From the NCBI RefSeq assembly GCF_029227855.1, contig NZ_CP074356.1: a DNA stretch of 64,000 nucleotides; one strand, given 5' to 3'. This DNA is from Escherichia coli (GTDB lineage Bacteria; Pseudomonadota; Gammaproteobacteria; Enterobacterales; Enterobacteriaceae). The notes beneath the pieces are model-generated. The model saw nothing but the letters and a program-made list of their open reading frames with translations. It was not told the origin of the DNA and did no database searches. The translations under genes were made by a program, and so were the position numbers. Shown here in pieces: positions 45,591-49,733 of this stretch. The first letter of the stretch is position 1, and every line of letters begins with the position of its first letter.

Positions 45591-46022
45591 GTGGCAAAAG
45601 TTTTTACACAAGAAGAGCGGGAAAAAATTAAAGGGCAGGTGGTGGAACTCGTGCGCCAGAGCGGTCGTGAGACGTTACGGCAACTGGAAGCTAAAACAGG
45701 TGCGACTAGATATCTGATGAGCGTTCTTGCCAGAGAGCTGGTAGCCAGTGGCGATGTATACAACTCCGGCTACGGGTTATTCCCGTCTGAACAGGCGCGT
45801 AAGGACTGGCAACACGCCCGCAAAAAACTCTCGAGGGCAAAGGTGAAGAAACCTGCTGTGGTTGATCCGGACCTTATCTGGTCATTACCTGACGGAGAAA
45901 TACGCCGCTACGACAGTCGCCTAAACATAATCTGTCGCGAGTGCCGGAAGACTGAAGTTATGCAGCGTATACTCGCATTCTATCAGGGAAATGTTCGATA
46001 TCTATTGAAGCGACGAGATTAA
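45591..46022 (+). CDS. hypothetical prophage protein (143 aa, GTG start)
   Basis: GTG at 45591 preceded by AGGGGG; basic protein; function unknown. Confidence 0.5.
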   Translation: MAKVFTQEEREKIKGQVVELVRQSGRETLRQLEAKTGATRYLMSVLARELVASGDVYNSGYGLFPSEQARKDWQHARKKLSRAKVKKPAVVDPDLIWSLPDGEIRRYDSRLNIICRECRKTEVMQRILAFYQGNVRYLLKRRD

Positions 46023-46345
46023 AGAGCATTAGTTCAGATGTGAATTGACATTTTCGTGGCACAAGATTAGCGCTAGCGTGGTCGTTTGGTTTGTGCCAAG
46101 AGCGGATAATGCTGACATTCCTATGCACTAATTAACGCAGAGCAAGCCAGTTAGTTGGTTATGGAAGTAAGTTGTAGCCAGCAACTATCACCATCGGAGA
46201 TATTTAGGGGGATGCACTCTAAGTTGTAGTTACTTTATAATGTCACTTTCAAAGCGGAAGCTTGTACAAAAGATGGATAAGCTTTTGTATAGTATGGGAT
46301 TCAAGAATCACTAAAAGATGACAACAGTACTTACAGGATGTGGCT

Positions 46346-46585
46346 ATGATCCGAATTATGATTAGAATATTTTCTTTGACATTCGTTGCTTGCGCTGGCT
46401 TTGCTGCATATCACTTCAATAGTGTGCCATTGATGTTCACTTCTGGTAGCTTTCTTGTAACATTTTTAGGTACATTTATTGTTAATAAAAAAAGTTCAGG
46501 GCATACAATAATTCAAAAAAGCGGTAGCCATTCAAAAAATAATCATACGGTCGTTTTTGGAAATAATGAAAACAAGCGAGGCTGA
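46346..46585 (+). CDS. small two-TM membrane peptide (79 aa), first gene of the AT-rich cassette
   Basis: ATG at 46346 with AGGA upstream; MIRIMIRIFSLTFVACAGFAAYHF...LMFTSGSFLVTFLGTFIV then polar tail; stop is 2 nt before the next start. Confidence 0.5.
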   Translation: MIRIMIRIFSLTFVACAGFAAYHFNSVPLMFTSGSFLVTFLGTFIVNKKSSGHTIIQKSGSHSKNNHTVVFGNNENKRG

Positions 46586-46587
46586 TC

Positions 46588-47184
46588 ATGGTTGGTGTTA
46601 CTCAAAGGTCAGGGAATTACTCACGTAATGTGCAGGTGGTTGTCGATTCTAACTCTGTTGATATTATAAAGTCTCCATCGATTTTTATGGATCTTGTTGG
46701 TATTTTAGTTGATTCGAATGTTATTGATCCTCGTACAAACAATGACTACGAGCCATATGATATTGAGAATAAAATAGACTTCAATGATGTTATAAAACAT
46801 AGAGAACGTATTGAAGGGTTCTATCTATATTCTTCGATGATAGATAAAGCGTATGAAACATTAAATGAAAGTATGCCTACTGCTAAGGAAACGGCACTGA
46901 AAAGCATCAATTCACGATATCTTGATTGTCAAGGAGATTTATTGCTTAAACATAGAGAAGCGTATAAGAGCTGCAAGGATGCTCAGGAACGGAATAATTT
47001 AAAGATTCAATTGGTAAGAGAGTTTGCAGATTGGATAATAGACAGTGTAATAGAGCACATCATTAAGAAATGCTTAAATTCTCTTATGGCAATGAATTAC
47101 ACAAGCGAAGAAATCGAATGCCATGCTTCTTTTATCGTTTATCATGCATTCGTAGAGTGTAAGATTCTGGAAAAACCAATATGA
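46588..47184 (+). CDS. hypothetical protein (198 aa), second gene of the AT-rich cassette
   Basis: ATG 46588 with GAGG SD; stop overlaps the next start (ATGA); no motif I recognise. Confidence 0.65.
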   Translation: MVGVTQRSGNYSRNVQVVVDSNSVDIIKSPSIFMDLVGILVDSNVIDPRTNNDYEPYDIENKIDFNDVIKHRERIEGFYLYSSMIDKAYETLNESMPTAKETALKSINSRYLDCQGDLLLKHREAYKSCKDAQERNNLKIQLVREFADWIIDSVIEHIIKKCLNSLMAMNYTSEEIECHASFIVYHAFVECKILEKPI

Positions 47185-47417
47185 TTATCTCTGATGTAAC
47201 AAAACCAAGCCAAACCTTGTATTACCTGGGAGCTCGGTTATTAGAATGCATGAGTTCAAATGCTTATTCGTATGTTGATATTATAGACTTGTATAATGAA
47301 TTCAAATCTAAAAATAACAACTCTTCATTCACGCAATATATTTACACTTTAAATTGGCTATATTTATTAGGCCTGGTTGATGCTAACGAAAATGGAGATT
47401 TGATATTATGTTTTTGA
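47181..47417 (+). CDS. hypothetical small protein (78 aa), third gene of the AT-rich cassette
   Basis: ATG 47181 overlapping the upstream stop; 3' end overlaps the ATPase start by 10 nt. Confidence 0.6.
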   Translation: MIISDVTKPSQTLYYLGARLLECMSSNAYSYVDIIDLYNEFKSKNNNSSFTQYIYTLNWLYLLGLVDANENGDLILCF

Positions 47418-49132
47418 AACGGCTAATAGTCAGTTCTTTCAGGCTTGGAGTGATTCGTGATATCGAATTTCACATTGGCGTTAATTTGATTATTGACCGA
47501 AACACCTCCAGCAAAGAGCAAACTGGAAATGGTGTGGGAAAAACTACTGTATTAAGAGCTTTAGATTTTTGTTTTGGAGCAGAACAACTGAATTTTTATA
47601 CCGATCCTGAATTCAAGAAAGAAAATTCGGTTATAAAAAATTATTTGATAGAGAACGAGATTGAGTTTTGTTTAATTCTCACAAAAGATTTGAATAATAA
47701 AACTGCACCAGTAATAAAAATTAAGCGTAAAATTACATCTGAGACTAATAAAACGAAGGTTATAGCCTCAATAAATGAAGAGTCCTATACGAAGGCTAAA
47801 GATTTCAACGAGGCTTTAAAAAGAACATTATATCTTGATTCCGCGATAAAACCGACCATACGAGAGATTATGGGACGTGTTATTCGAAATACGCATGACA
47901 AGATGTCGAACGCATTAAAAACGATAAAAATGGGTTCTAATACACAATATGAAACGTTAAATCTGTTTATGTTTGGGTTCGGTAACTCACAGATTCTGGA
48001 TGAAAAACAGTCAGTGACTAAAGCCTATAAACTGGCGAAATCCGATTATGAAGTAATTACTCGCCATCGCTCAAAGAATGCTTTGGAACAAGCTATTGCA
48101 ATTATAAATAGAGATATTATAGCACAAGAAGAGTTAATTTCTAATTTTCAAGTGGCAGACTCTTATAATGATATGCTTGCTGAGTTAAATGAGTTAAAAA
48201 TTAAAATTAGTGAAGTTTCTATCACACTATCATCTTTGGAGTTTAAGCAAAAATTAAACGATAAGGCTATACTAGATCTGGAAAAAAGTCATGAAAATAT
48301 AAATACACTAGATCTACAGAAGTTGTACTTAGAAGCAACTGATCGGTTAGGTAACTTAAACAAAGAGTTTACTGAGCTACTTTCGTTTCATAATAAAATG
48401 CTTGTAAAAAAAGCTGAGTTTATTAGAAAACAAATGCAGCCAGTGCTGCAAGAAATTTCCAAATATAAAGATGAACTAAATAATTTATTGACTCAAGAAT
48501 CAGAGCTTTTAAAGAGTTTGTCTTCGCATGGGACATTGGCAGACCTGCAAATAATGCAAAAAAAATTAAATTCATTATTTGAAGAAAAAGGTGGGCTTGA
48601 AGCTGGACTACTTCAAATCCAAGAGATGGAGAACAACTTTAATATACTGAAAGCAAAGTTTAATGATGTGTCAGATAGATTAAAATCTAAACTTGACGAT
48701 TTTAACAAACGTCTTGCGCTATTCAATTCCTATTTTTCTTTATATACTAAAAAATTATATCAGGATGAATATATTCTTTCCTATAAAGATTCCTCCGGTT
48801 CTTTCGTTTTTACCATTGAACCTTTAGGAACTTTGCTCACATCAGGTAATCAGGGAGAAGGAAAAAAGAAAGCCCAGGTTGCCTCTTTAGATTTTGCCTA
48901 TTTATCTGTCCAGGAGTCTTTAGAAGCCAGAACACCACGTTTTATAGCTCATGATGGAATTGAGGCAATTCATGTAAATCAAATAAATAAGTTATTCGAG
49001 ATAGCTTCGGGGATTAATGGTCAATATATATTGGCTATTCTTAAAGACAAGTTGGAGAATATTGATCAAGACTTCATCAATAATAGTGTTGTGCTTGAGC
49101 TTGGGGAGGACGATAAGTTTTTTAGGCTTTAA
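47408..49132 (+). CDS. SMC/Rad50/ABC-type coiled-coil ATPase (574 aa), fourth gene of the AT-rich cassette
   Basis: N-terminal P-loop TGNGVGKTTVLRALDFCFG (RecF/SMC-type Walker A); ~300-aa heptad-rich central region; C-terminal TSGNQGEG (signature-like) followed by RFIAHDGIEAIH (Walker-B/D-loop-like); GGAG SD. Confidence 0.8.
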   Translation: MFLKRLIVSSFRLGVIRDIEFHIGVNLIIDRNTSSKEQTGNGVGKTTVLRALDFCFGAEQLNFYTDPEFKKENSVIKNYLIENEIEFCLILTKDLNNKTAPVIKIKRKITSETNKTKVIASINEESYTKAKDFNEALKRTLYLDSAIKPTIREIMGRVIRNTHDKMSNALKTIKMGSNTQYETLNLFMFGFGNSQILDEKQSVTKAYKLAKSDYEVITRHRSKNALEQAIAIINRDIIAQEELISNFQVADSYNDMLAELNELKIKISEVSITLSSLEFKQKLNDKAILDLEKSHENINTLDLQKLYLEATDRLGNLNKEFTELLSFHNKMLVKKAEFIRKQMQPVLQEISKYKDELNNLLTQESELLKSLSSHGTLADLQIMQKKLNSLFEEKGGLEAGLLQIQEMENNFNILKAKFNDVSDRLKSKLDDFNKRLALFNSYFSLYTKKLYQDEYILSYKDSSGSFVFTIEPLGTLLTSGNQGEGKKKAQVASLDFAYLSVQESLEARTPRFIAHDGIEAIHVNQINKLFEIASGINGQYILAILKDKLENIDQDFINNSVVLELGEDDKFFRL

Positions 49133-49279
49133 GATTTGTAATTTGATAGATATGTAGATATCATTTTTCTCGCTCAAAACTGACAGTCAGATTTGAGCGA
49201 ATTGCTTATGTAAGTATTTCGCAGAATCATGCCATTTATATTTATTAGAACATACGTACTTTAAATGTGGGAGGCTGTC

Positions 49280-49366: not shown

Positions 49367-49577
49367 TTTCATATTGGCGAGATAACGGGAGTTAAGTAGA
49401 ATGCCTGCGGGTGCTTGAGGCTATCTGCCTCGGGCATGAACACCAACGGCAGATAGAGAAAAGCCCCAGTTAACATTACGCGTCCTGCAAGACGCTTAAC
49501 ATTAATCTGAGGCCAATTTCATGCTAGACACATGTAGGTTAGCCTCTTACGTGCCGAAAGGCAAGGAGAAGCAGGCT

Positions 49578-49733
49578 ATGAAGCAGCAAAAGGCGATGTT
49601 AATCGCCCTGATCGTCATCTGTTTAACCGTCATAGTGACGGCACTGGTAACGAGGAAAGACCTCTGCGAGGTACGAATCCGAACCGGCCAGACGGAGGTC
49701 GCTGTCTTCACAGCTTACGAACCTGAGGAGTAA
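49578..49733 (+). CDS. hokD: Hok/Gef-family membrane toxin HokD (51 aa)
   Basis: ATG 49578 preceded by AAGGAGAAG; MKQQKAMLIALIVICLTVIVTALVTRKDLCEVRIRTGQTEVAVFTAYEPEE; ORF track shows an in-frame upstream extension from 49521. Confidence 0.86.
   Translation: MKQQKAMLIALIVICLTVIVTALVTRKDLCEVRIRTGQTEVAVFTAYEPEE

Follow-up and report, generated by a model that had tools for sequence, protein, structure and literature searches.

Upstream of a four-gene cassette in a prophage of Escherichia coli lies a short inverted repeat that is overlapped by two promoter-like hexamers, and a preliminary description of the locus offered two readings of it: it might act as operator of the cassette, or it might be a palindrome that arose by chance in AT-rich DNA. 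We asked which of these readings is borne out by the 64,000-nucleotide stretch of DNA analysed here (hereafter the window) and by related loci in other genomes. The element is most likely of an ordinary kind, namely the promoter region of a rare mobile Lamassu-like defence cassette, and the 33-nt block that contains the repeat is, as judged from sequence comparison, most likely the cassette's own core promoter, perhaps together with a regulator-binding site.

The cassette and its position in the prophage

The four genes downstream of the repeat form one tight operon, and the cassette is AT-rich (GC 0.27-0.37):

46346..46585, + strand: first gene, encoding a 79-aa basic protein with hydrophobic segments at residues 1-22 and 29-46
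46588..47184, + strand: ABC-3C component with a CTD10 domain, LmuA-like (Pfam PF20275, E = 1.6e-10)
47181..47417, + strand: ABC-3C middle component 6 (MC6), LmuC-like (Pfam PF20293, E = 1.6e-13)
47408..49132, + strand: ABC/SMC-like ATPase with DUF2326, LmuB-like (Pfam PF10088, E = 4e-14)

The gene for the 79-aa protein comes first in all relatives of the cassette. The matches to PF10088, PF20293 and PF20275 are all above the gathering scores, and an ATPase, a middle component and a CTD component are found together in one operon, as expected for ABC-3C, which has been equated with type II Lamassu (LmuA-LmuC-LmuB; PMC11707656; bioRxiv 10.1101/2025.06.23.660979). From its domain content the cassette is a predicted ABC-3C or type II Lamassu-like anti-phage system. 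Its CTD10, MC6 and DUF2326 ATPase components follow the canonical order of LmuA-LmuC-LmuB and DdmABC; in contrast to these systems, the LmuA-like CTD10 protein lacks an enzymatic effector domain, an extra protein with two transmembrane segments is encoded first, and the only PADLOC model matched is a candidate one, PDC-M68B (E = 1.3e-41 for the ATPase), LmuB being matched weakly (E = 6e-4). Our literature search returned no paper on DUF2326 systems, and the homologue search found few relatives of the CTD10 protein. MC6 is acidic and is predicted to fold as a compact winged helix (helices at residues 13-26, 34-44 and 50-63 and a beta-hairpin at 66-76; pLDDT 79); no solved structure matched it at E of 0.001 or better (best E = 0.019).

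The prophage that carries the cassette is lambdoid and Rac-like. In it the cassette occupies a slot flanked by a DUF977 gene (45591-46022) and by hokD/sok, which holds different cargo in other prophages; the cassette was found in 16 of 5,426 complete E. coli genomes. The hokD/sok type I toxin-antitoxin locus (49409-49733; Rfam sok, 115 bits at 49409-49583; Pfam HOK_GEF on the ORF 49521-49733) forms the right border of this cargo slot. Relatives with at least 79% protein identity, which share a colinear cassette and an alignable leader, are referred to as group A (the window, L001, L005-7, L008/9/29, L010/11/27 and L012). They are found in the Rac-like prophage, in another lambdoid prophage, where the orientation is opposite, in a satellite hotspot and, adjacent to Hcp, in a chromosomal island of Cronobacter, and the leader accompanies the cassette into these unrelated contexts. 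Cassettes with a protein identity of 48-56% make up group B (L014-L021 and L030-L033), and their leaders are unrelated to those of group A.

Homology to prophages with other cargo stops near 46105. The DNA from ~46106 to 46236 is a diverged copy of a module of ~150 nt (...AGTTGTCAAAAGTTGTC...GGGGATTTTTGG...TAAGTTACAGTTGCTTCA at its end), copies of which occur in ~31 IMG/VR contigs, 23 E. coli genomes and one Klebsiella IncF plasmid; those compared were window ~46106-46236, L034 1882-2043 and L036-L081. The module is always followed by different cargo, which marks a sharp cargo-hotspot junction, and many of its copies hold a GC-rich terminator-like hairpin with a T-run after it. In L080, primase and small-terminase-like genes are encoded upstream of the module, a setting that suggests a phage satellite. 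Since the DNA upstream of ~46237 is hotspot-flank module, often with a terminator-like hairpin, a dedicated promoter would have to lie within the last ~100 nt, in the leader:

46237..46345, + strand: cassette-specific leader, comprising the conserved block, the variable bases 46296-46299 and the ribosome-binding region with AGGA at 46335-46338

The inverted repeat and the conserved block

The sequence of 46263-46295 is TGTACAAAAGATGGATAAGCTTTTGTATAGTAT. The block and the arms of the repeat are listed below, with positions that vary among relatives given in lower case in the block.

46263..46295, + strand: conserved 33-nt block, TGTAcAAAAgAtGgATAAGCTTTTgTATAGTAT, proposed -35 to -10 region
46265..46272, no strand: left arm of the inverted repeat, TACAAAAG, from the repeat search
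46282..46289, no strand: right arm of the inverted repeat, CTTTTGTA, from the repeat search

The arms are 8/8 complementary (100%) around a 9-nt loop, and when extended outward to TGTACAAAAG and CTTTTGTATA they pair at 9 of 10 positions, the ninth pair (G46264 with T46290) being a mismatch. The dyad symmetry expected of an operator for a dimeric regulator is thus present in these arms, and the original account of a repeat of 8-9 bp separated by nine bases was accurate. The first ATG at 46346, taken from the RefSeq annotation of the identical E. coli locus, lies 56 nt downstream of the right arm, in agreement with the estimate of about 55 bp, and AGGA stands ahead of it. TTGTAC (46262-46267) and TATAGT (46288-46293) both overlap the repeat as had been described, except that TTGTAC starts one base before 46263, where the element had been taken to begin.

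Taken by itself, the repeat is weak evidence and at chance level. Dinucleotide shuffling of the 323-bp intergenic region produces a perfect inverted repeat of 8 bp (loop of 0-20 nt) in 7% of cases, the 64-kb window has such repeats at 39 distinct centres, and at least one match to the repeat pattern with up to three mismatches occurs in 28 of 100 shuffles; the repeat alone is therefore not significant. At the same tolerance the pattern occurs a single time in the window, with no second copy. It also does not resemble an intrinsic terminator, as the stem contains one G:C pair and lacks a T-run, and the terminator scan did not list it. The site is significant because of its conservation across loci, not because of the repeat alone.

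Unless stated otherwise, invariance counts refer to six distinct, diverged group-A cassettes. Across these, 28 of the 33 columns of the block are invariant (85%), whereas only 78 of 217 fourfold-degenerate sites are (36%; binomial P about 1e-8); at first and second codon positions these cassettes are, like the block, 85% invariant. Pairwise identity ranges from 0.91 to 1.00 in the block as against 0.53 to 0.92 at fourfold sites, and in the deepest pairs, with a fourfold identity of 0.54-0.55, the block retains 0.91-0.94, the whole leader 0.75-0.77 and the upstream segment 46236-46262 0.63-0.67. TATAGTAT and ATAAGCTTTT show no variation across group A. The four bases directly 3' of the block, 46296-46299, at the expected transcription start, are variable, and downstream of them the ribosome-binding region is conserved again. 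Those block positions that do vary track the phylogeny of the cassette. Relatives of the block elsewhere were absent from the 5,426 E. coli genomes, from phage records and from plasmids. These comparisons point clearly to strong purifying selection on the block, and the succession of a conserved block, variable bases at 46296-46299 and a conserved ribosome-binding region reads as the footprint of a core promoter.

It is a separate matter whether the symmetry of the block is selected. In group A the two arms and their pairing are as follows:

Window, PG20180057 and SA31-1: TACAAAAG / CTTTTGTA, 8/8
L005, L008 and L029: TACAAAAG / CTTTTATA, 7/8
L010: TATAAAAG / CTTTTATA, 8/8, with a two-sided change
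L012: TACAAAAT / CTTTTATA, 6/8

The right arm is CTTTTATA in L005, L008, L029, L010 and L012, and the arms are imperfect in three of the six lineages. The sole compensatory change is that of L010, where a C to T exchange in the left arm together with the A in the right arm restores 8/8 pairing. Six of the arm pairs never vary; one is C:G in three cases, T:A in one and broken in four, and one is broken once. Covariation of the arms does not exceed that of shuffles (the score was reached by 315 of 500), a test which is underpowered because no new group-A leader variants turned up in exact-pattern scans of genome, viral and metagenome collections or in a protein-based genome scan. Moreover, loop (7 of 9 positions invariant) and arms (13 of 16) are equally conserved, and the selected unit is therefore the whole block rather than its symmetry. 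Neither the preserved or co-varying symmetry nor the higher conservation of arms over centre that would mark an operator was found, and these data do not demonstrate that the dyad itself is selected.

Promoter, operator and competing readings

Two elements of the block and its 5' edge are relevant for its reading as a promoter:

46288..46293, + strand: candidate -10 hexamer TATAGT, 5/6 to TATAAT
46262..46270, + strand: candidate -35 region (TTGTAC / TGTACA / TACAAA), no register of which gives a good -35

TATAGT is near TATAAT and has both A2 and T6, as is typical for a sigma-70 -10 hexamer. It is invariant in all eight distinct leaders, and is 8/8 invariant together with the next two bases. 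When each of the six group-A leaders is scored with a position weight matrix (PWM), the hexamer at this place in the alignment is among the top candidates, with PWM scores that are modest throughout (~5-6 bits). TATAGT ends 52 nt before the ATG, and the -10 hexamers of the clear sigma-70 promoters in subgroup B end at 41-59 nt, TTGATT-17-AATAAT at 51-59 nt and TCAACA-17-TATAAA, with TGn, at about 41-47 nt. In the -35 region, TTGTAC leaves a spacer of 20 bp, TGTACA one of 19 bp (4/6) and TACAAA one of 17 bp (3/6); TGTACA-19-TATAGT is the best pair of hexamers, and the leading TTG is not conserved, being GTG in L010 and ATG in L012. The promoter scan listed no + strand site in 46106-46345 because the hexamers described originally are 20 bp apart, outside the range of 16-18 bp. 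Two other candidates were rejected: the TATAAT at 46236-46241, which has the best score in the window, belongs to the hotspot-flank module, has an unconserved -35 and reads TAAAGT in relatives, and a weak antisense candidate (minus strand, TTGAxx-17-TATATA) has no T6 and does not occur in the window.

Indirect support for a promoter comes from the invariance of TATAGT, from a leader only ~100 nt long and from the promoters of distant cassettes, which lie at a similar distance to the ATG. TATAGT at 46288-46293 would be the -10 hexamer of a sigma-70-type core promoter that contains the repeat and that has a weak or mis-spaced -35, either TGTACA (19 bp) or TACAAA (17 bp). Transcription would start at ~46299-46301, leaving a leader of ~46 nt before the first gene, and the promoter would serve the four-gene ABC-3C / type II Lamassu-like operon at 46346-49132. 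In this it would resemble the moron-type promoters of prophage and satellite cargo, which likewise combine a short cassette-specific leader, a -10-like hexamer and an AT-rich operon, here in the variable lambdoid slot between the DUF977 gene and hokD, with a leader that moves along. In contrast to moron-type promoters, the -35 of this candidate promoter is poor or mis-spaced and its spacer is unusually conserved.

It is the spacer that makes a binding protein worth considering. Within group A, 16-19 of its 19 positions are identical at cassette identities of 0.81-0.93, whereas in subgroup B2 the hexamers are kept and the spacer drifts, with 7-14 of 17 positions identical at 0.76-0.92, which indicates that the group A spacer is under an additional, sequence-specific constraint. 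Such constancy would not be expected of an ordinary spacer, as the drift in B2 illustrates, and the unusual constraint therefore suggests a protein-binding site. Regulators that bind between -35 and -10 have a dyad centred in the spacer. At this locus the centres of the dyad (46277) and of the 19-bp spacer (46278) differ by 1 bp, and spacers of 19 bp (TGTACA) or 20 bp (TTGTAC) correspond to the layout of MerR-type promoters with a 19-20 bp spacer and a central dyad. A putative dimeric regulator could bind the dyad TGTACAAAAG-N9-CTTTTGTATA over the promoter, and once bound would set the output of this potentially toxic membrane-effector system.

No DNA-binding or regulator family was matched by any of the four cassette proteins in profile searches, and no PDB sequence relatives of these proteins were found. 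Nor is there a cognate regulator next to the target, as the neighbouring genes differ in every context. Since the cassette contains no regulator, any binding protein would be host-encoded. Our leading reading, which we hold tentatively and at slightly less than even confidence, is that the repeat lies within the cassette's own core promoter, the spacer of which is held constant by a host-encoded regulator acting at the dyad; the existence and identity of this protein, its action as repressor or activator and the transcription start are inferred.

Several observations weigh against a regulator-bound promoter. From centre to centre the half-sites are 17 bp apart, an unusual distance for a dimer of the simple helix-turn-helix type. 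The cassette brings no regulator gene along, conservation of the loop equals that of the arms, and in L005, L008, L029 and L012 the arms do not pair perfectly. In addition, the promoter scan was empty here, with PWM scores of only ~5-6 bits, and there is neither a second copy of the motif in the window nor any relative of it in the 5,426 E. coli genomes. A comparison with repressor operators located over core promoters gives the same mixed picture: position, dyad symmetry and conservation across the spacer are alike, but here symmetry is not maintained, the loop is conserved like the arms, and a cognate regulator and a second site are missing. The suggestion that the repeat serves as operator of the cassette draws on the constrained spacer and the dyad in its middle; against it stand a symmetry broken in half of the lineages, covariation at the level of shuffles and the missing regulator. 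Overall the operator reading is only suggested by these data, although it appears reasonable.

To our knowledge, none of the motifs for IHF, DnaA box, Fur, CRP, LexA, H-NS nucleation, NarL, the 434 operator or the P2 Ogr site fits the block, the variable positions of which fall in the cores of these motifs. The sites of BluR, MlrA and RcdA, which were checked against the literature, were rejected as well, having only a single TGTACA in common with the block.

A further analogy is with MerR-type promoters, for which MerR-like regulators and spacers of 19-20 bp have been reviewed (PMC3509220) and which the arrangement TGTACA-19 bp-TATAGT with a dyad 1 bp off the spacer centre resembles. The E. 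coli ycgZ promoter, which is controlled by the MerR-like BluR, has TGTACA at its -35 and reads TGTACA-N20-TATTGT; the BluR site is TGTAC-N9-GTACA and the MlrA site AAAGTTGTACA-N12-TGCACAATTTT (PMC3509220). However, in contrast to the BluR and MlrA sites the block contains a single TGTACA half-site, and spacing and orientation differ. Compared with BluR, the second GTACA-like element lies at a distance of 19 nt, and most relatives have ATATA in its place. Unlike in MerR-type promoters, the A-tracts are inside the dyad and not outside, and no MerR-family gene accompanies the cassette, none of whose proteins has a MerR-family match. The resemblance to MerR and BluR is one of logic, not of membership. 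By this analogy, an invariant dyad in a promoter with an overlong spacer could act as a switch, in which a host MerR/BluR-like regulator silences the cassette and induces it upon a cellular signal. We regard this switch as unlikely; if it were real, an abortive-infection system would be expressed conditionally rather than constitutively. In an even bolder variant the Lamassu complex, or its winged-helix middle component, would sense the palindrome in its own promoter.

The principal rival to a regulator-bound promoter is a plain constitutive one, in which no regulator is involved, the repeat is a by-product of A- and T-tracts (AAAAG...CTTTT) in AT-rich DNA, and what is conserved in the block is a core promoter together with those features of the spacer by which a weak promoter is tuned. 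This is a serious contender, although we would sooner doubt it than accept it. It is consistent with a repeat that is by itself at chance level, with the loss of symmetry in half of the lineages and covariation at shuffle level, with the equal conservation of loop and arms, and with a cassette that encodes no regulator and whose MC6 is acidic and has a hydrophobic third helix. However, ordinary sigma-70 spacers are not constrained in sequence, as the drift in B2 shows, whereas here 13 of 17 (TACAAA-17) or 15 of 19 (TGTACA-19) spacer positions are invariant, compared with a neutral level of 36%.

An element acting at the level of RNA is improbable. Here the block would be carried by transcripts started upstream, either at a -10-like TAAxxT (46238-46243) or by read-through out of the early operon of the prophage, and a hairpin or a pairing with the start region (GGAU 46275-46278 with AUCC 46349-46352) would limit translation of the first gene. 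In the window the hairpin reaches -9 kcal/mol (z = -2.7), and RNAalifold pairs the loop with the start-codon region, including one series of G:C to G:U to A:U. Yet the hairpin lacks a central pair in four of seven variants, the RNAalifold consensus energy is only -4.4 kcal/mol, and duplexes between block and initiation region are no better than those of shuffles in five of six variants. In addition, the upstream -10-like hexamer is part of the hotspot-flank module, without a conserved -35 and behind a terminator-like hairpin, and Rfam has no match in the leader (only sok near hokD). With no Rfam match, a consensus of -4.4 kcal/mol and a hairpin broken in most variants, the leader does not behave as a structured 5' UTR element.

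Very improbable is also a functionless palindrome whose conservation is due to recent ancestry or to local recombination of the leader. The repeat does occur at chance frequency, yet the block is 85% invariant as against 36% at fourfold sites. At fourfold sites the six loci have nearly reached saturation (0.54-0.55 identity in the deepest pairs), the flanking leader segments are far more diverged than the block, and variable positions that follow the phylogeny of the cassette argue against a recent exchange of 33 bp. The chance palindrome of the original account, if taken to have no function, is disfavoured because the block is under strong purifying selection.

Least probable of all is an autoregulatory operator, bound by MC6 or by the assembled Lamassu-like complex in feedback on the promoter: MC6 has a predicted H-S-H-H fold with a beta-hairpin wing and fold neighbours that include the winged-helix DNA-binding domains of Fur, Zur and ORC (TM 0.6-0.77), and a response of Lamassu to DNA ends and to palindromic DNA has been reported (PMC11707656; bioRxiv 10.1101/2025.06.23.660979), but these fold matches are weak (best E = 0.019) and generic, extending to the protein-binding cullin WHB, MC6 has a pI of 4.24 and only 4 K+R, its hydrophobic helix 3 (FTQYIYTLNWLYLL) does not vary between subgroups that have unrelated leaders, in the solved complexes of type II Lamassu the middle component has a structural role on the coiled coil (bioRxiv 10.1101/2025.06.23.660979), and subgroup B2 has no conserved spacer. 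Because of the weak, generic fold matches, the acidity, the hydrophobic helix 3 and the structural role in Lamassu, autoregulation through the modelled MC6 appears unlikely.

In the literature examined, no native promoter or regulation of type II Lamassu or ABC-3C has been described. Lamassu studies so far have relied on heterologous promoters, and how anti-phage systems with toxic effectors are safely expressed is at issue. The strongly conserved block, with its constrained spacer and dyad, provides in 33 bp a small and concrete target for the study of host-factor control of cassettes that move among prophages, satellites and chromosomes; a merely constitutive promoter would amount to routine annotation.

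Further observations on leader, slot and cassette

The sequence AAAAGATG occurs twice in the leader, at 46268-46275 and 46313-46320, 45 nt apart, and each copy opens a short ORF. The leader peptide MDKLLYSMGFKNH (46273-46314), which starts in the loop of the repeat, was rejected, as it has AGG in place of its ATG in L008 and L029 and its stop codon is absent in the other relatives. The 15-codon ORF opened by the second copy overlaps the start of the first gene out of frame, and its ATG is unconserved in relatives.

A further inverted repeat (TCGTGGCACAA / TTGTGCCAAGA, 46054-46064 / 46091-46101, 26-nt loop) follows closely on the DUF977 gene at the left edge of the slot. Rac-like prophages keep it irrespective of their cargo, and the flank module, in its version from plasmid and satellite, also contains the right arm of this repeat (TTTGTGCC..AGCGGA). 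This repeat may represent a terminator or a recombination anchor. In E. coli KK05-19 (NZ_CM144239.1 / NZ_OZ392455.1) an IS3-family element is inserted in the flank module at the equivalent of window ~46184, ~160 nt upstream of the first gene, with block and leader intact.

A motif of ~17 aa rich in Q, N, G and S is common to the tail of the first protein and the N-terminus of its CTD10 neighbour (window and L005-L033), and co-varies between the two proteins across subgroups (first protein / CTD10):

Group A: IIQKSGSHSKNNHTVVFG / VTQRSGNYSRNVQVVVD
Subgroup B2: VTQKGGAFSNNNQSVNIG / ISQRGGFGSRNTQVVFN
Subgroup B3: ATQKGGAFSQNTQNNYFSG / IQQRGGLGSTNIQNNFLT

A C-terminal motif on a putative membrane effector and an N-terminal motif on its sensor-side neighbour correspond, by analogy, to the layout of an amyloid signalling pair, an example of which is E. 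coli Bab/Agp BASS11 (bioRxiv 10.1101/2024.11.07.622273); that paper makes no mention of ABC-3C or Lamassu. An amyloid-type pair in this cassette would replace the enzymatic LmuA effector.

In SA31-1 (L001 3150-3317) the RefSeq MC6 gene is 168 nt long as against 237 nt, which suggests a difference in start site or frame. At the other end of the operon, homology among cassettes ends within ~25 nt of the ATPase stop codon. A long hairpin (TCGCTCAAA-A-CTGAC-A-GTCAG-A-TTTGAGCGA, 49170-49200) is located ~40 nt past this stop codon, without a T-run, and may be the terminator of the cassette; L005 and L008 have a different hairpin, CAGTATGGATAC...GTATCCATACTG, at the same place after the ATPase.
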